Below are positions 1 to 27,415 of a DNA stretch of 27,415 bases, one piece after another. A program made the position numbers and the translations under genes. Origin of the DNA: a virus. Its lineage: Duplodnaviria; Heunggongvirae; Uroviricota; Caudoviricetes. The notes beneath the pieces were generated by a model. That model was not told where the DNA came from. It was given only the letters and a program-made list of their open reading frames with translations, and made no database searches. Each line of letters starts with the position of its first letter. The first letter of the stretch is position 1. Location: IMG/VR virus record IMGVR_UViG_2681813230_000002, positions 1-27,415 of that record, one strand, 5' to 3'.

Positions 1-246
1 TTATGGGAGATTTCCCCGGTTCACCCGAATAAGTGCGCGTGGTTTACTGACGGTAGCCCGCCGTAACCGGGCACGTTGCTTAACCAGTTTTCGAGGTACT
101 CGAGTCGATTTCGAAACGACAGAAACGCTTCGGTTGATGGCCTGCCCGGCAATACGGTTAACCGACTGGGCAGAGGCACGTGGAACGGCCGTTTTGCTGA
201 TGCTGTTGAGGTTTGCGATAGCCTGCTCGAGGCCTTTGATCGACAT
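1..246 (-). CDS. Minor tail protein Z (lambda gpZ-like), 81 aa, apparently truncated
   Basis: N-terminus MSIKGLEQAIANLNSISKTAVP...RVNRGNLP tracks my recollection of lambda gpZ (MAIKGLEQAVENLSRISKTAVP...KVNRGDLPVIK...), but a TAA stop follows LP at positions 1-3, whereas lambda Z is about 190 aa. Confidence 0.6.
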   Translation of the reverse strand: MSIKGLEQAIANLNSISKTAVPRASAQSVNRIAGQAINRSVSVVSKSTRVPRKLVKQRARLRRATVSKPRALIRVNRGNLP

Positions 247-254
247 AGCCCCTC

Positions 255-530
255 CTACTCAATGAAGATACGAGGTTTCCCGTTAAACAGTTCGTGACGT
301 GTGACGGTCCAGTTTTTGCCTTCCCAAACCACTTCATCGTTTCGTCGCGGGGTATAATCTCCACTGAATACCACCAGAGACCGTAAATTCCCTGATAACG
401 ACCCCATCTCTTCAAGCAACTCAGCAGAGATAACGTCGTATGTGATTCCGTTAATCAGAGCCGTTTTCCCCATCTTTTTTATGGTGGCCGCGTCCATGCG
501 AGCCGCCATCCGATCAAAGGGATTAGACAT
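255..530 (-). CDS. Head-tail attachment protein (lambda FII-like)
   Basis: 91 aa, located between head and Z genes; weak recalled similarity to gpFII family; overlaps upstream gene by 8 nt. Confidence 0.5.
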   Translation of the reverse strand: MSNPFDRMAARMDAATIKKMGKTALINGITYDVISAELLEEMGSLSGNLRSLVVFSGDYTPRRNDEVVWEGKNWTVTRHELFNGKPRIFIE

Positions 531-2891: not shown

Positions 2892-4391
2892 TTACTTTTT
2901 GCGCTGGCTTTCGGACGGTGGCGCGCCCGGTTCTTTGGCTTCGGCACTGGTGCCTCCTTTATCATTGGCGGGGTCGGTGTCAAACACCAGGCCCTGTTCT
3001 CGGTTCTCGTCAACCTCCGCTTTACGGCGTGACTTAACATCATCCGGGTTGCGACCGCTGGCACGGATCCAGTCGGATTCGGTTGCCGCACCGCCGCGGA
3101 TTTGCGTTTTCCAGGCATTGGCTTCTTTAACGGGATCAATCCACGGCATAACGGGTCCCGAATAAACCGCGTTATACAGCGTGTCCATATCGATGCCTCT
3201 CGGCAGCTTGATTTCTCCGGCAGCAATAGCCATCTTCAGCCAGGCCCGGTACATTGGCCGGGTCACTGAACCGATGAACCAGTCCTGCAAAATCAGATAT
3301 CCGTCGGTTGACTCGACAAGCTCCTGCCGCTGGGCACTGTATGTGCCGTTGTAGTTTCTGGATGTACTGGAAAAACTGAGGCGACTGCCCGCAGATACCG
3401 CCCGCAGCTGTCCGTTACGAAACGACTCGAGGTTAGGGTTCGGGCGATCGGATTTAATCATCCCGATTTCTTCCCCGGCCTGCAGTTCGTCATAGAGCAT
3501 ACCGGGCTGAATCATCAGCTCGCGGTCATCGCTGCTGGAATCTGAATCGAAACTCTGTCCGTCGCCTTTTTTGATATACATGCCGAGTGCCGCAGCAATT
3601 CTTGCTGCAGTAAGCTCCGAGTCCTCGTATTCTTTCAGCGCGCTCAGGCGCATCAGGACGCCAGACAAAAGAGACGTTCCGCGGGTCTGGTGCAGGCGGC
3701 GGGTGAATTTGAGATGGAGCATGTTCTCAGCATCTATCTCTTTCGTATCGAACTGTCGCCCGGATACCGGCAGACTTTTATAGACCTGATATTTTTTAGG
3801 CCGTCCCCAGTTATCGACAAAAACGCCCTGATTAAGCTGGGTGGCTTCATCGCTGTTCATCGGTACGAAATCAGGCTCCAGCGCTTCCAGCCAGAAAGGC
3901 ACACCAGCGACCGGCTGAAGCCCATTTCCGGTACCGCGAACCAGCTGAGCAAAAACCTCGCCGTCCCTGAGCCACGTTCGCAGCATAAGACGCTCAAGCA
4001 TGGGCCGGGTAAACTGGGTTGTGACATCGGGCCTTACGGACCATTCGCCCCACTTTCTGCGGATATCAGTGGCAAGCTTTTTGGCTATCTTCCCGTTACT
4101 CAGCATCGGATGCGGTTCAACTATGATGCCCTTCGCACCCACCACCCTTTCTTCCAGCTTGTCGAAAACGCCGATCACCAGATCGTGGTTGTTATCCAGC
4201 CAGCGCGCCTGCTGCCTCAGCGAAACCGCCCCCATCTGGCTGAGCTGATCGGCTGAACGATTTTCCTTCTGGGCTTTGTGGGTACGCGTTTGCTTTACCG
4301 CCTCATACGCTTTAATAACTGCGCGGGCACGCAGGCGTGAGGCTTTCCAGCCTGGTGAAAACAGGCCAATCGCATCATCTAAAAAACTCAT
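2892..4391 (-). CDS. Portal protein (lambda gpB family)
   Basis: 499 aa; position between gpW and protease-capsid gene; start overlaps gpW stop (ATGA). Confidence 0.8.
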   Translation of the reverse strand: MSFLDDAIGLFSPGWKASRLRARAVIKAYEAVKQTRTHKAQKENRSADQLSQMGAVSLRQQARWLDNNHDLVIGVFDKLEERVVGAKGIIVEPHPMLSNGKIAKKLATDIRRKWGEWSVRPDVTTQFTRPMLERLMLRTWLRDGEVFAQLVRGTGNGLQPVAGVPFWLEALEPDFVPMNSDEATQLNQGVFVDNWGRPKKYQVYKSLPVSGRQFDTKEIDAENMLHLKFTRRLHQTRGTSLLSGVLMRLSALKEYEDSELTAARIAAALGMYIKKGDGQSFDSDSSSDDRELMIQPGMLYDELQAGEEIGMIKSDRPNPNLESFRNGQLRAVSAGSRLSFSSTSRNYNGTYSAQRQELVESTDGYLILQDWFIGSVTRPMYRAWLKMAIAAGEIKLPRGIDMDTLYNAVYSGPVMPWIDPVKEANAWKTQIRGGAATESDWIRASGRNPDDVKSRRKAEVDENREQGLVFDTDPANDKGGTSAEAKEPGAPPSESQRKK

Positions 4392-6702: not shown

Positions 6703-7202
6703 CAGTCCTCCTCAGGCTGCTCCTCCTCTTTTCCAGCGTCCTGCACCTTCTCCGCCATCTGGTCGCGCAGATCATCGATAACGCTTTGCACACGAACTAC
6801 CGCAGCAGGCGTTAAAGCACAGTCGCGCTCGAGCACATCCGGGAGGGTTTCAAGTACCATGACGACGGCTTTCGCCATCAATGAGAATTCTCGCGCCACT
6901 TCATCTGCGGGTATTAACTGCCCCGTATCCTGTTCGAACTTCAGCCTCTCGTTCTCTGCTTTCCAGTGGGACAGCCTGTCAGAAGGGGGCATATCGTCGA
7001 TGTTGGCCGAAACGGTAGGGATCATCAGTTCGGTCAGAATGTCGGTCACCAGATAGAGCTTTAACTTGCTATTGCTGCCTGGAGCAGGTTCAACATTTTT
7101 CAGTCTCGCGGCAACCGTCTGACGGTGTACGCCGGTTATCCCTGCCAGCTGGTTGATATTGAGTTTTAAAGTGGCAATTTCCTGGTCCATGATGGTGAAC
7201 AC
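6702..7202 (-). CDS. Terminase small subunit (lambda Nu1-like, N-terminal HTH)
   Basis: 166 aa; N-terminal motif NINQLAGITGVHRQTVAARL resembles Nu1 winged-HTH; acidic C-terminus; immediately downstream of cos-like site. Confidence 0.65.
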   Translation of the reverse strand: MFTIMDQEIATLKLNINQLAGITGVHRQTVAARLKNVEPAPGSNSKLKLYLVTDILTELMIPTVSANIDDMPPSDRLSHWKAENERLKFEQDTGQLIPADEVAREFSLMAKAVVMVLETLPDVLERDCALTPAAVVRVQSVIDDLRDQMAEKVQDAGKEEEQPEED

Positions 7203-7295
7203 TTTTTGAACGATTCGACATGTTGCGAAAATGGCCTCTAATTAAATCAAAGACCTGCGCACATGATGATGATGACCCTGGATCCGAAAAACTAG

Positions 7296-7350
7296 CCGTT
7301 TCCCGCGAGCGCGCCGCCCCGTGGTAGGCAACCCCGCCGGGAGGACCCAT
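7296..7350 (-). other. cos site (cosN-like); predicted 12-nt cohesive end GGGCGGCGCGCT at 7308-7319 on the minus strand
   Basis: Minus-strand sequence ATGGGTCCTCCCGGCGGGGTTGCCTACCACGGGGCGGCGCGCTCGCGGGAAACGG closely resembles my recollection of the lambda genome-end junction (GGGTCCTTTCCGG...TTACG then GGGCGGCGACCTCGCGGGTTTTCG); lies about 110 bp upstream of the Nu1-like start. Confidence 0.65.
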
Positions 7351-7427
7351 AAGAAAACACAGGTCCGACCGCCGTTTTGAATTCTCTTCTAAACGACTCT
7401 AGTTTGATTTGAGTATGCAATACGCGT

Positions 7428-7451
7428 AAAAAAGCCCCGCATAGGCGAGGC
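7428..7451 (-). terminator. Rho-independent terminator downstream of the peptidase cassette
   Basis: Minus strand reads GCCTCGC-CTAT-GCGGGGC (7-bp stem with one G-U) followed by TTTTTT. Confidence 0.55.
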
Positions 7452-7470
7452 TGGAATCAGACAGGGGGGA

Positions 7471-8373
7471 TTAAGACTGGATATTCCAAATCATTGCGTT
7501 ACCGTTATGATTTTCAATGATTTTTGCCAGTGGTGCTCCACCAAAAGAATGCATGTAGCTGTGATGTATAGTCAAAACCAAATCTTGAAGTACTTGATCA
7601 CTTTCAAGTTCGGTAACATTCAACCCAATTTTCTGCGCCTTATCAAAATGAATATGACGCGAGTGGGTATAGGTTGTGTGATGGTTGTTTAACTCTGAAC
7701 AAACATGTGTTGCTTTTGATTCTGCCTCAGGATCATTATCAAACATGCCTGTCATAAGCCAATGCTTAACAATCTCATTTGCCCATTTGATTGCTTTCTC
7801 ACACTCGCCGATGATCGTCGGGTTTAGCTTTTGAAGAATGAACTGCCACATCTGAACAGCTGCGGGATTTTGAAAAATTTCCGTCTGCGCACGATTCCAT
7901 TCTTCAATGATGGCATGGGTGGAGAAACCGTTGAACTGAGGATCAATTGGGCCAATGTTGGACTGTTTACCCATGATGATTTCATTGGCACAACATGCAA
8001 GCATAGTTCCGCAGGACATTGAAATCATAGGAACAATTGCTCTGATGTTAGTTCCAAACTTCGACCTTAAGTAATGCCCGATTGATTCCAAAGCGGCAAT
8101 ATCACCACCTGGAGTATGAAGTATCAAATCCAACCCTTTTGATACATCTAAACCATTGATGGCTGTCATCAACCCGTTCTTATCATCATCAGTCATCTGA
8201 GTAAGATGGCGTACTTCTGCACCACCATGCTGTAACCACCCTGAGTAATATGTGATTACATTTCTTCCAGTATGATTCGAAAGTTGAGATAAGTATTTAC
8301 GGCGAACCTCATCCATAGGACTTTTATGGGCGAGAGCCGTTATCTCGCCCAGTACGTCGCTCCAATTAGGCAT
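7471..8373 (-). CDS. SDH/S49-like Clp-fold serine peptidase (accessory moron)
   Basis: 300 aa with motifs LILHTPGGDIAALESIGHYL and MISMSCGTMLACCANEIIMG typical of ClpP/SppA-fold serine peptidases; AT-rich relative to flanking phage genes. Confidence 0.7.
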   Translation of the reverse strand: MPNWSDVLGEITALAHKSPMDEVRRKYLSQLSNHTGRNVITYYSGWLQHGGAEVRHLTQMTDDDKNGLMTAINGLDVSKGLDLILHTPGGDIAALESIGHYLRSKFGTNIRAIVPMISMSCGTMLACCANEIIMGKQSNIGPIDPQFNGFSTHAIIEEWNRAQTEIFQNPAAVQMWQFILQKLNPTIIGECEKAIKWANEIVKHWLMTGMFDNDPEAESKATHVCSELNNHHTTYTHSRHIHFDKAQKIGLNVTELESDQVLQDLVLTIHHSYMHSFGGAPLAKIIENHNGNAMIWNIQS

Positions 8374-8376
8374 AAA

Positions 8377-8577
8377 TCAGTACGTGTAAAGTTGATGACT
8401 TGTAGTTTGGTTTTGCTTCGATTGTGTAGCGGTACCTTGTGAGTACCAAACACCTGTGTTTCCACTCGTACTAGTTTGCTGTGCCATTACACGAGAAGCG
8501 AAGTTGTTAACAGTTTCACCAGTCAACATTTCTGCCGGTTTGATATTGTAAACATCGTAGAACTCAGCTGGGGTCAT
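8377..8577 (-). CDS. Small hypothetical protein, 66 aa, with Ser/Thr/Gln/Asn-rich C-terminus
   Basis: ORF ends 4 nt before the peptidase start; strong SD (AAGGAG) 7 nt upstream of ATG; AT-rich. Confidence 0.5.
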   Translation of the reverse strand: MTPAEFYDVYNIKPAEMLTGETVNNFASRVMAQQTSTSGNTGVWYSQGTATQSKQNQTTSHQLYTY

Positions 8578-8584
8578 AATGATA

Positions 8585-8640
8585 GCTCCTTTTATAGCGC
8601 TACATATAGTGCCTGTGCCAAGGGGGACATACTATATGTG
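8585..8640 (-). promoter_or_regulatory. Putative promoter for the peptide/peptidase cassette
   Basis: Minus strand reads TTGGCA-18 nt-CTATAA, then AAGGAG and ATG; hand-identified, weak. Confidence 0.3.
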
Positions 8641-8664
8641 CCATTGTTGTCATATTTAAATGTG

Positions 8665-8686
8665 CAAAAAGCCTCAAAAGAGGCTT
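8665..8686 (-). terminator. Hairpin plus T-run upstream of cassette (downstream of Rz)
   Basis: AGCCTC-AAAA-GAGGCT stem-loop with flanking T-run on the minus strand. Confidence 0.4.
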
Positions 8687-8947
8687 GAAAAAGATGCAAA
8701 AATACTATCTATGACGTGACTATAGCTACTTACCCACAGTTTATACAAGCCAAAAATGCTAAATTCAGATAATCCTATTCGCTGAAAAACTACACAAAAG
8801 CTACGTTCATCTTGTCATTAGATAACGTCAGTAACTTTCACTGGATCTAAGCCATTGGTGAAAAAGCTAATTGCATGATGAAGCACTGTAATGTAGCAGT
8901 TGAGGTTGTTAAATGAGAATCACCCTAACAATGTCAACGGACATTAT

Positions 8948-9484
8948 TCATTTTCGTAACTTCTCAATCTCTCGTATACCCGCCAGGTTATTGTTGCCCT
9001 TCTCAATAACAGCCAGCAAAGGTTCAATCCAGAGGACGGCCTGGCAATACGTCATTGAGCTGGCGGCAGCGGTACTATCATCGGTTGCGTTAGTGTTCCC
9101 GGTATCGGGGTGCATTGCGCTGGCACGTAAACGGTACGCGTATTTGAGCAGCCCACCAGCGACATCAGCAGGAACAGGCAGATCACAGGTCTTTTCACGT
9201 CGGAGAATCTCCCGGTATTCGATGACAGTTTTCTCAGTACCGGCATCGATCAGCGAGTTAAGGCGGTTGGCGTTCTCTGCTATCTGGTTAAACCGATTGA
9301 AGTTGAAAGCCTGTGTAGTTATCACCGTCGCCTGCAGCGCGTTATCATTACGTAATACCCGATTCTCACTCTGTTCTGTTTCAAGAGCTGAGCGGCTACG
9401 AACCAGTAATACGCTAAGCACTGCAATAATGATTACGACAGCCACCAGCAGAACCGCAACAATCGTAATTTTTCTGGGTTTCAT
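8948..9484 (-). CDS. Rz-like i-spanin
   Basis: 178 aa, N-terminal TM segment (ITIVAVLLVAVVIIIAVLSVLLV) then coiled-coil periplasmic domain; directly downstream of endolysin with 1-nt overlap. Confidence 0.7.
   Translation of the reverse strand: MKPRKITIVAVLLVAVVIIIAVLSVLLVRSRSALETEQSENRVLRNDNALQATVITTQAFNFNRFNQIAENANRLNSLIDAGTEKTVIEYREILRREKTCDLPVPADVAGGLLKYAYRLRASAMHPDTGNTNATDDSTAAASSMTYCQAVLWIEPLLAVIEKGNNNLAGIREIEKLRK
9052..9246 (-). CDS. Rz1-like o-spanin (lipoprotein), embedded in Rz in another frame
   Basis: Lipobox-like LMSLVGCSN followed by Pro-rich C-terminus (PIPGTLTQPMIVPLPP); true start may be internal to the track ORF. Confidence 0.55.
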   Translation of the reverse strand: MPVLRKLSSNTGRFSDVKRPVICLFLLMSLVGCSNTRTVYVPAQCTPIPGTLTQPMIVPLPPAQ

Positions 9485-11124: not shown

Positions 11125-11940
11125 TTATCGTGTTATTTGTTTCAGTTGGTTTTCTGCCCATGCCTCTTCAATATCGAATTTCGTAATCAGCTGATCATAG
11201 AACGGTTTAACGGACTTCTTCCACGTATCCAGGCTGATTACATCCGTAATCTGGCAAATAGCTGCGTGGGCCTCAGTTGAAGGAATGCGTTCATATCCAC
11301 GCCCGCCGCAGCGCTTGCAGTCAGTCATAACCGGCACACCCTGTTTCTTCGTTTCCTTCTGGTCTACGGCTTTCCCACGTCCCCGGCAATCATTGCAGGC
11401 ACAACTGACAACCTTCTTCCCCTTGCAGTTCGAGCACAGCACTCGAACCACCTCTCGAACCTGTCGTTTAACCTCGAAATCACTCGGTGACTGACCAAGC
11501 TCTTTCGCCCATTGAGGAATCCTCATTGAATAATGAGATTTCATTGTGAACACGTCGGCCTCAATAAATCCCTGCCCGCTGCAACAATCACACTGCTTAA
11601 CGCTCGCAGCGCTGCGGGAGTAATCTTCAAAAGCGAAGGTGGCCAACTGGTGCATCACCTTAGGCTTAACCCCGGAATCCAACTTACGCAGTGCGGCAAC
11701 CTTGTCACATTTGGTCATCGCATACTCAGCCAGCAGTCCGATCGCTCGCTCGCGATCGTAATCGCTGATATCCATCTTACCGAGGAATGCACTGAACCCG
11801 AGATCAGCCCGGCTCTGTGTCATTCCGATCGCCGCCATAATGTCAGTGCCGGTTAATGAGTCAGATGCGGTTGCACGTGGAGCGTCGCTAATCATCGTTG
11901 ACTTCGCGAAGTGGTATTTCACTGTGTTTTCGAGATTCAT
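11125..11940 (-). CDS. Q: Late gene antiterminator Q
   Basis: 271 aa with multiple Cys clusters (CDCCSGQG, CSNCKGK, CACNDCRGRG, CKRCGGRG) typical of lambdoid Q proteins; located between nin genes and lysis cassette. Confidence 0.8.
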   Translation of the reverse strand: MNLENTVKYHFAKSTMISDAPRATASDSLTGTDIMAAIGMTQSRADLGFSAFLGKMDISDYDRERAIGLLAEYAMTKCDKVAALRKLDSGVKPKVMHQLATFAFEDYSRSAASVKQCDCCSGQGFIEADVFTMKSHYSMRIPQWAKELGQSPSDFEVKRQVREVVRVLCSNCKGKKVVSCACNDCRGRGKAVDQKETKKQGVPVMTDCKRCGGRGYERIPSTEAHAAICQITDVISLDTWKKSVKPFYDQLITKFDIEEAWAENQLKQITR

Positions 11941-25986: not shown

Positions 25987-26225
25987 AAAAGATTTTGAAT
26001 GGCCCGAACGGGCAACTGGAGAGAGCTATGGATGATATTTTGGTAACGTCAGACCTGACCAGTCGCTACAAAATTTCACGCAAAACCCTTTGGTCATGGC
26101 AAAGTGCAGACACAATGCCTCGGGGCTTCGTATGCCCGTTCCCACCCCCTGACTGGCCCGGCAACCCTAACCGCTGGCGCTCTGAGTCAATCAAAGAGTG
26201 GGAGGATAAAAAGAAGATAAATTAA
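25983..26225 (+). CDS. AlpA-like excisionase / DNA-binding regulator
   Basis: Pattern Y..S..T.W.W.....P..F.....PN.W...I.EW resembles AlpA/Xis-type HTH proteins; lies next to the integrase. Confidence 0.55.
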
Positions 26226-27415
26226 CTGAAGGGCTCTCCGATGATCTCTTCAAGATGGCTCTGCCAAACGCGGAGCCAGTGTTTCTGATCATCGATATAG
26301 TCATGAAGGTTGTAATGCGCCATAACCCCCACCATCTGATGCCCGAGCAGCTTTTCAATTACGTGCGGCGGGCAACCTAACTCAGAGAGATTTGTGGCTA
26401 TCGTCCGCCTCATATCATGAAGCGACCACTCTGCCATACCTGTTCCATTCCAAATAGAACGGGCGTAATTGGATGCCACAGGTGAATGAACGGGCGAATC
26501 TTTGATCCCGCCATCAATTTTACGTTGTGAAGTCACCAGGTGATTGGTGTTTATTTTCTTGAGGTGATTTCTGACCAGGTTAACGGCGGCGTCTGAGAGT
26601 CCCCTTCTAATATGTACCCGAGTTTTATAACTGCCCGCAGGCACGACCCACTCATTATCATCCAATCGAAACCATGATCTCTCACTAAGTCGAATCTCAG
26701 CCGTACGGCATCCGGTAAGCATAATAAATTTCACCAGGAAAACGGACTCTATCGACATATGGCTTTTCAACCACTGATAGATTTTGCGCAGATCGTCATC
26801 GTCCATCCTGCGAGTTCTCTTTTTAGGCTTTTGCCCGACATCAGATGGCAGTAATCCCTCGAGTGGGTTTGAGGCGATCACACTTCTGTTAACGCAGAAC
26901 CTAAACGCCCGTTTGCACAGCGAAAGCATGTAATGAGCCATCACCCTGCTTTCTATAGAATCGAAGACGTTGATCCAGTGCATTTTCGCTGTGTTATCGA
27001 CTTTGACATTCTTCATCGGTTCGGCGATATGTTTCTCAAACACCTGGCGATAGTAATCGACTTTAACTAGCCCGTTAGCGATACAGTGCCTTTCAATCCA
27101 GTAATTGAACGCTTCGGCAACGGACATCGCTTCCTGTCGGGTCTGCTTATCCAGCTTCACCTGCTCTCGCGGATCCAGTCCCTCAGTTAACCAGTTTCTG
27201 AATTGTTGGCGACGCTCTCTTGCCTGGGTGATACTCATTGCAGGATAATCACCAACATTGAGTTTTACCGCTTTACCGGCCCAGCGATACCGATAGAAAA
27301 ATGATATTTTTCCGGCCTGGCTGATTCTGGCGTTGAGCCCGTGCGAATCAGAAATAATCTCGATATCATCTCTTTTCTTGCCGAGCGCCTTCCTGAGCTT
27401 TGTGTCGGTGATCAT
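26222..27415 (-). CDS. int: Tyrosine integrase, P4-type (N-terminal DUF4102-like arm-binding domain)
   Basis: N-terminus [10 protein letters not shown]...[33 protein letters not shown] typical of P4-family integrases; C-terminal region with HxxR and HDMRRT/HYNLHDY-type catalytic motifs; ATG is the last codon of the window. Confidence 0.85.

Follow-up and report, generated by a model that had tools for sequence, protein, structure and literature searches.

Insertion sequences (IS) inactivate lambdoid prophages in E. coli and Shigella, as in the cryptic prophages of K-12 and the prophages of O157 Sakai. The prophage described here is like such prophages in general: a host IS interrupts one late gene, and the prophage otherwise looks complete. 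Unlike cases of advanced decay, it carries a single clean insertion with the rest apparently intact, and it therefore looks recent. The gene concerned encodes a homologue of lambda gpZ, the prototype tail completion protein, which is present in virions (PMC11099176, PMC11784142, PMC10721106). Lambda particles made without gpZ have a normal appearance, yet most of them are non-infectious (PMC11099176, PMC11784142), a defect attributed to DNA misplaced at the head-tail interface (PMC11099176, PMC11784142, PMC10721106). Lambda gpZ (P03731, 192 aa) and the Z of this prophage share a family (PF06763; PHROG 27), and the gene order FII-like/Z/U/V/G-T/H is common to both. However, the Z gene analysed here matches profile positions 1-79 of 190 alone.

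The element concerned is IS186, whose published target, 5'-GGGG(N6/N7)CCCC-3', is highly specific. E. coli K-12 has 54 such sites; some have been hit repeatedly, and one was hit 16 independent times (PMC5009759). IS186 at the lon promoter is given as the basis of Lon deficiency in E. coli B where SaiSree et al. (2001) are cited in PMC3045373 and PMC4618355. IS186 at the same position of this promoter in the opposite orientation has been taken as an independent event (PMC3045373). The Z site and the lon hot spot share the same element (100% identical) and the same motif with a 6-nt core. At each of them insertions occupy one exact position in both orientations, apparently recurrently. However, the Z site lies inside a prophage structural gene and the lon site in a host promoter. 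Furthermore, the Z target is limited to one Z allele group. The GGGG(N6/N7)CCCC hot spots of PMC5009759 were mapped in mutation-accumulation lines.

A truncated tail completion gene at the window edge

The window, meaning the whole 27,415-nt stretch of DNA that was analysed (IMG/VR record IMGVR_UViG_2681813230_000002), covers a lambdoid E. coli prophage from its integrase to Z (Table 1). Apart from Z it looks intact, with integrase, S24 repressor, O, Q, lysozyme, DUF1441, gpA terminase, portal and ClpP-capsid fusion genes, and we therefore read the prophage as recently crippled rather than decayed. Both window ends are gene boundaries, the stop of the Z fragment at base 1 and the integrase ATG at base 27415, so the coincidence of a stop codon with base 1 is an artefact of trimming, not biology. 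The window is thus a provirus call trimmed at gene edges, from which the ~20 kb of tail genes of the prophage are missing. Its left edge probably originated in a repeat-induced contig break; a provirus call on a repeat-ended contig, followed by trimming to the gene edge, gives exactly this window.

Table 1. Positions of the features discussed, in window coordinates
Feature	Position	Strand	Evidence or remark
Z-N, truncated 5' part of tail completion gene Z, 81 codons	1..246	minus	ORF, PF06763, PHROG 27
IS186 terminal inverted repeat tip (CATAA on the minus strand)	1..5	minus	Junction in related loci
One copy of the 10-bp target-site duplication GGAAATCTCC	6..15	minus	Direct repeat in related loci
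Shine-Dalgarno AGGAGG of Z	251..256	minus	Direct sequence reading
Gifsy-2/FII-like head-tail joining gene, 91 aa	255..530	minus	PF13856, phrog_153, synteny; upstream neighbour of Z
ClpP-type prohead protease and major capsid fusion ORF	932-2965	minus	PF00574 and PF25209; alternative TTG start at 3226 overlaps the portal gene
300-aa ClpP-like SDH-type serine protease ORF	7471-8373	minus	PF01972, E = 8e-23; phrog_11747 (unknown function)
Q gene	11125-11940		Window annotation
Integrase	26222..27415	minus	PF13356 and PF00589; ATG is the last window base

An earlier note, made from the letters of the window, had described a gpZ-like gene that stops after 81 codons at the window edge, and the gene is there as described. 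The ORF (Z-N) runs from an ATG through 81 codons (MSIKGLEQ...RVNRGNLP) to a TAA at bases 3..1. Its residues 3-81 match positions 1-79 of the 190-position PF06763 (Minor_tail_Z) profile with E = 7.5e-27 and 94.8 bits, against a Pfam gathering cutoff of 23.9. A second match is to PHROG 27, 'tail completion or Neck1 protein', at positions 13-94 of 199 (E = 3.8e-24). By these matches Z-N is the genuine N-terminal 40% of a Z protein and not a chance ORF. Full-length members of the family have about 184-192 aa and cover the whole PF06763 profile; the window ORF does neither and is a gene fragment rather than a functional family member. Its placement follows the lambda gene order, between the FII-like gene upstream and, past the IS, Phage_tail_U and Phage_TTP_12.

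The same note had likened the N-terminus to lambda gpZ almost residue for residue. Family membership and the shared ...NRG(N/D)LP end hold, but near-identity does not: in an ungapped alignment with the 192-aa lambda-type Z of phage DE3, 51 of 81 residues are identical (63%) and 84% are similar. Z-N stops exactly after the conserved ...NRG(N/D)LP in this alignment, and the phage DNA in it amounts to 80 full codons plus one base. The fragment retains the AGGAGG of Z, a strong ribosome-binding site from which the 81-aa product is probably translated. An exact-sequence look-up in the public collection returned this product from 48 contigs (65 blocks), and its E. coli records include EQY69284.1 (UMEA 3240-1) and STI29430.1.

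IS186 within codon 81 of Z

In 5,426 complete E. coli genomes, megablast and blastn searches with the left window end and the rebuilt Z returned no copy of this Z allele above 90% identity. Because of this, locus context was drawn from draft, NCTC and metagenome assemblies through exact-protein look-up. A DNA search of the phage collection gave head-gene matches alone (mEp213, mEp043 and others; ~93%; query 465-1498) and no close Z.

At the left window edge, bases 1-5 (reverse complement CATAA) belong to the IS186 inverted repeat, CATAAGCGCTAACTTAAGGGTTG, and form its first 5 nt. Intact alleles read ...CTCC|CCGCC at this junction; four of the five window bases depart from this reading and agree with the IS. 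Uninterrupted phage DNA across the edge would read ...CTCCCCGCCATAAAACTC..., and it is the IS tip that supplies the last two bases of codon 81 together with the TAA stop. The junction ...GGGGAAATCTCC|CATAAGCGCTAACTTAAGGGTTG runs on into IS186 in all related loci that extend further (11/11). Contigs that share the junction and continue into IS186 are 95.8-100% identical to the window, and three of them (L004, L006 and L008) match it at 99.98-100% over 7.2-10.2 kb before the IS begins. The window itself holds 5 nt of IS186, and the claim for its own source rests on these near-identical contigs. The earlier suggestion that a different element might abut Z is thus borne out, and the element is IS186, already present in the five terminal bases of the window.

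Chromosome-scale contigs from three independent assemblies, among them E. coli UMEA 3240-1 (L001) and an NCTC E. coli (L002), show both junctions. In all three (L001-L003), the order after Z-N is a gene for a 370-aa DDE transposase, a short ORF, ~330 bp more of Z and then the tail genes. The element occupies 10242-11580 in L001 (1339 bp) and ends in perfect 23-bp inverted repeats, CATAAGCGCTAACTTAAGGGTTG on both sides; its transposase, InsL, is the 370-aa ORF with PF01609 (DDE_Tnp_1). It is flanked by the direct repeat GGAAATCTCC, which measures 10 bp, or 12 counting ambiguous end bases, and a second copy of which follows the IS in L001-L003. Across all 1339 bp the element shows 100% identity to copies that carry the annotation 'IS4-like element IS186B/IS421 family transposase'; of the 5426 complete E. 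coli genomes, 2221 contain such copies. We conclude, with a probability of roughly 0.93 for the explanation as a whole, that a host IS186 (IS4 family, 1339 bp) transposed into codon 81 of Z and left an 81-aa fragment.

When the IS and a single duplication copy are taken out of L001, the result is a restored 184-aa Z ORF that covers PF06763 from 1 to 190 of 190 (E = 2e-70) and whose stop overlaps the U start (ATGA). Z therefore does not continue in another frame, as had been proposed as one option; IS186 follows, and Z resumes in the same frame 1339 bp plus 10 bp further on, with its remaining 103 codons after the IS. To the left of the window, where the earlier note had proposed to look for the rest of Z and the downstream tail genes, related contigs carry IS186 and then 3' Z, U, V, G, T, H, M, L, K, I and J. 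The lengths of these genes in L001 and L002 equal those in loci with an empty site, and the IS therefore appears to be the sole lesion in the tail module as far as J. Accordingly, the idea of a disrupted tail module holds for Z, which is split by insertion, and fails for a deletion remnant, since 3' Z and U through J follow the IS at normal lengths.

A deletion that removed the tail module and placed host or unrelated DNA after the truncated Z would account for a window that lacks tail genes and ends at the truncation. It is nonetheless extremely unlikely. The rest of Z and U through J come directly after the 1339-bp IS in all three chromosome-scale loci, the window edges are gene-boundary cuts, and in short-read assemblies the complementary half of Z and the tail genes lie at the edge of another contig. 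Six short-read or metagenome contigs end 20-132 bp past the Z stop, as expected at a repeat. The same NCBI assemblies hold both an N-terminal 'partial' protein of 78-80 aa and a C-terminal 'partial' protein of 105 aa (LPAIKLG...), and the C-terminal contigs begin inside the duplication (ATCTCCCCGCC...) and go on to U, V, G, T and H.

Since the stop falls exactly at the window and contig edge, where assemblies are least reliable, one might also suspect a sequencing or assembly error, a chimeric join or a frameshift. Such an error has a negligible probability here: independent projects and platforms yielded the same junction, on 48 contigs (65 blocks) as well as on two IMG/VR contigs, and multi-megabase contigs span the whole IS with a proper target duplication.

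Z-N matches phrog_9077, a family of 81 positions and unknown function, end to end (E = 4e-37), which is what a natural and functional short form of Z in this lineage would predict. However, the stop codon of the fragment is IS DNA rather than phage DNA, and the closest Z proteins of cultured phages (HK225, N15 and mEp237) have 184 aa. These are 81% identical to the rebuilt Z, which is thus nearer to them than to lambda Z (56%). Moreover, the exact 184-aa protein (P0150) is found uninterrupted on 471 contigs, including Enterobacter cloacae ATCC 13047, other Enterobacter and E. coli, so the full-length allele is ~10 times commoner than the fragment (471 vs 48 contigs). Close variants occur in Salmonella and E. 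coli. The earlier note would have been refuted by functional phages that share an 81-aa Z followed by intact tail genes; instead, among 164 phage records that match, 162 reach at least 80% coverage of the 184-aa Z, and the 757 database homologues are mostly about 184 aa. A functional short form is therefore highly improbable, and phrog_9077 is most simply, and probably, a database family built from the IS-truncated product rather than a real protein family.

Two further forms fall in the same 90% cluster as this Z. P0122 (STQ11457.1, Enterobacter cloacae) is a 98-aa frameshifted Z that diverges after ...NLPAIK. P0132, from an ENA metagenome, is a 242-aa Z with a garbled internal duplication around the IS186 target and is probably an assembly artefact at the IS186 site.

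The IS186 target and its two orientations

Before insertion the target read GGGG-AAATCT-CCCC, a perfect IS186 N6 site, whose GGGG half lies at window positions 14-17. The duplication copy at 6..15 falls within the left portion of this target. Eight uninterrupted loci (L086-L093) have the empty site GGGGAAATCTCCCC and carry the exact pre-insertion sequence GTGAACCGGGGAAATCTCCCCGCCATAAAA; L077-L080 carry a one-base synonymous variant of it. The 27.4-kb window holds no other N6 or N7 site, where ~0.3 of each would be expected by chance. The peptide NRGNLPAIKLG is conserved throughout the Z family, but the motif is confined to this allele group: a scan of species-representative genomes found no carriers among 67 Z genes of other species (0/67), and lambda-type Z lacks it as well. 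Those 67 Z loci, which served as a negative control, have at most 81% identity, and none is interrupted. On this comparison of sequences, the IS186 target is an accident of the codon choice of this allele, CGG GGA AAT CTC CCC.

All 11 loci that extend past the junction have an identical junction and, where visible, an identical duplication. Their orientation differs: the transposase is co-directional with Z in seven (L001, L002, L005, L006, L007, L094 and L095) and opposite to it in four (L003, L004, L008 and L009). The 81-aa product is the same in both orientations because both inverted repeats are identical for 23 nt. In a neighbour-joining tree of the 7.2-kb head region, interrupted loci are spread over at least four backbones, 4-5% apart, and empty-site loci branch between them. 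Two empty-site loci, L087 and L092, show just 2-3 differences from the window across the 4 kb beside the junction, and both orientations occur within backbones 0-2 SNPs apart per 7-10 kb.

That IS186 sits here in either orientation, and on several backbones, suggests a hot spot used recurrently. As we analyse it, recurrent independent insertion is the simplest reading, and it has direct precedent. Alternatively, both orientations may reflect in-place inversion via the 36-nt extended inverted repeat, 94% complementary, that flanks the IS. A large chromosomal inversion between IS186 copies was considered as the cause of the orientation difference and rejected, by the reasoning that it would leave the orientation of the IS relative to the Z-N flank unchanged. 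It is also contradicted by L003, where both flanks stay in place.

Could the split gene be functional, or the IS a switch? Both IS ends read TAA inward and an in-frame ATG outward. The IS end CTTATG thus makes a 108-aa ORF (Z-C, MGNLPAIKLG...), called as a gene on five contigs, and Z-N and Z-C might complement each other. Both orientations in otherwise identical prophages, together with the extended inverted repeat, would likewise fit a reversible switch by precise excision or in-place inversion. We nonetheless regard this as very unlikely. Inspection of the sequence before the Z-C ATG found no Shine-Dalgarno or other ribosome-binding site, and halves of a tail completion protein are not known to assemble. 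The same two ORFs result from either orientation, so orientation is no switch for Z itself. Published IS186 hot spots receive repeated, independent insertions in either orientation (PMC3045373, PMC5009759), and this accounts for the polymorphism with no function needed.

We tentatively propose, as possible though short of even odds, that the RGNLP codons are a strong natural IS186 hot spot at which this prophage family is repeatedly knocked out upon entering E. coli that carry IS186, or that the IS flips in place; either way IS186 would be a recurrent, sequence-specific inactivator. If so, a host transposon recurrently inactivates one phage lineage, and the locus would offer a convenient natural system for studies of IS186 targeting. 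A known IS at a known consensus target in a known phage gene is a real but ordinary finding, and its hot-spot aspect is modestly interesting. We found no publication on IS186 at this Z site; recurrent use of its GGGG-N6-CCCC is a modest and clean addition to what is known of IS186 hot spots.

Predicted consequences and other features of the prophage

IS186 has transposed into the canonical GGGG-N6-CCCC target at codon 81 of Z, and its end (CATAAG...) gives an immediate TAA and thus the 81-aa N-terminal fragment. Heads and tails would still be made, but without full-length gpZ this prophage would likely yield particles that look normal and are mostly non-infectious, by analogy with lambda. Expression of U may be lowered as well: translation of Z up to the ATGA overlap would be lost, and with it translational coupling. 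Genes past the IS may further be reduced by transcriptional polarity, much of which Q antitermination may offset.

Several practical points follow from the split of this gene by IS186. The prophage is a nearly intact lambdoid with one clean IS186 lesion in its tail completion gene, not a tail-less remnant, and strains with an IS186-split Z are predicted to release non-infectious particles on induction. When provirus callers end a prophage of this kind at the IS, ~20 kb of tail genes drop out. In protein databases, halves of one gene build up as 'partial' tail proteins and as an 81-aa 'family', probably phrog_9077.

In three empty-site loci (L077, L091 and L093), the head region ~2.5-7.5 kb upstream of Z is rearranged: it contains an additional, shorter protease-capsid gene and has lost terminase and portal genes, and in L091 and L093 a transposase of the IS3 type (rve) is present. 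These changes represent another way in which prophages of the same family decay. The protease-capsid fusion of the window is itself a known arrangement, its E. coli homologues in RefSeq being named 'ClpP-like prohead protease/major capsid protein fusion protein'.

The SDH-type protease ORF is moron-like. It lies between the lysis cassette and the terminase genes, in a low-GC segment (~7000-9000) with a GC content of 0.40-0.45 vs ~0.55 in the flanks, and a PADLOC scan of the ORF gave no defence-system match. It also occurs in L001, L002, L004, L006 and L008. Its place is taken by other cargo elsewhere: a methyltransferase in L003 and L005, a Ser/Thr kinase and PP2C phosphatase in L007, and KilA-N in L009.

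Beyond the integrase end of the prophage lie the host genes kch-yciY-cls-sapF. The 397-aa integrase occurs extremely widely (15,250 blocks), in every case beside these genes, which lie to the right of base 27415 (L081-L084). The integrase locus is thus a heavily used integration site common to mosaic lambdoid prophages, and the early regions that follow the integrase vary, with RecT/YqaJ or a RecE-like Exonuc_VIII.
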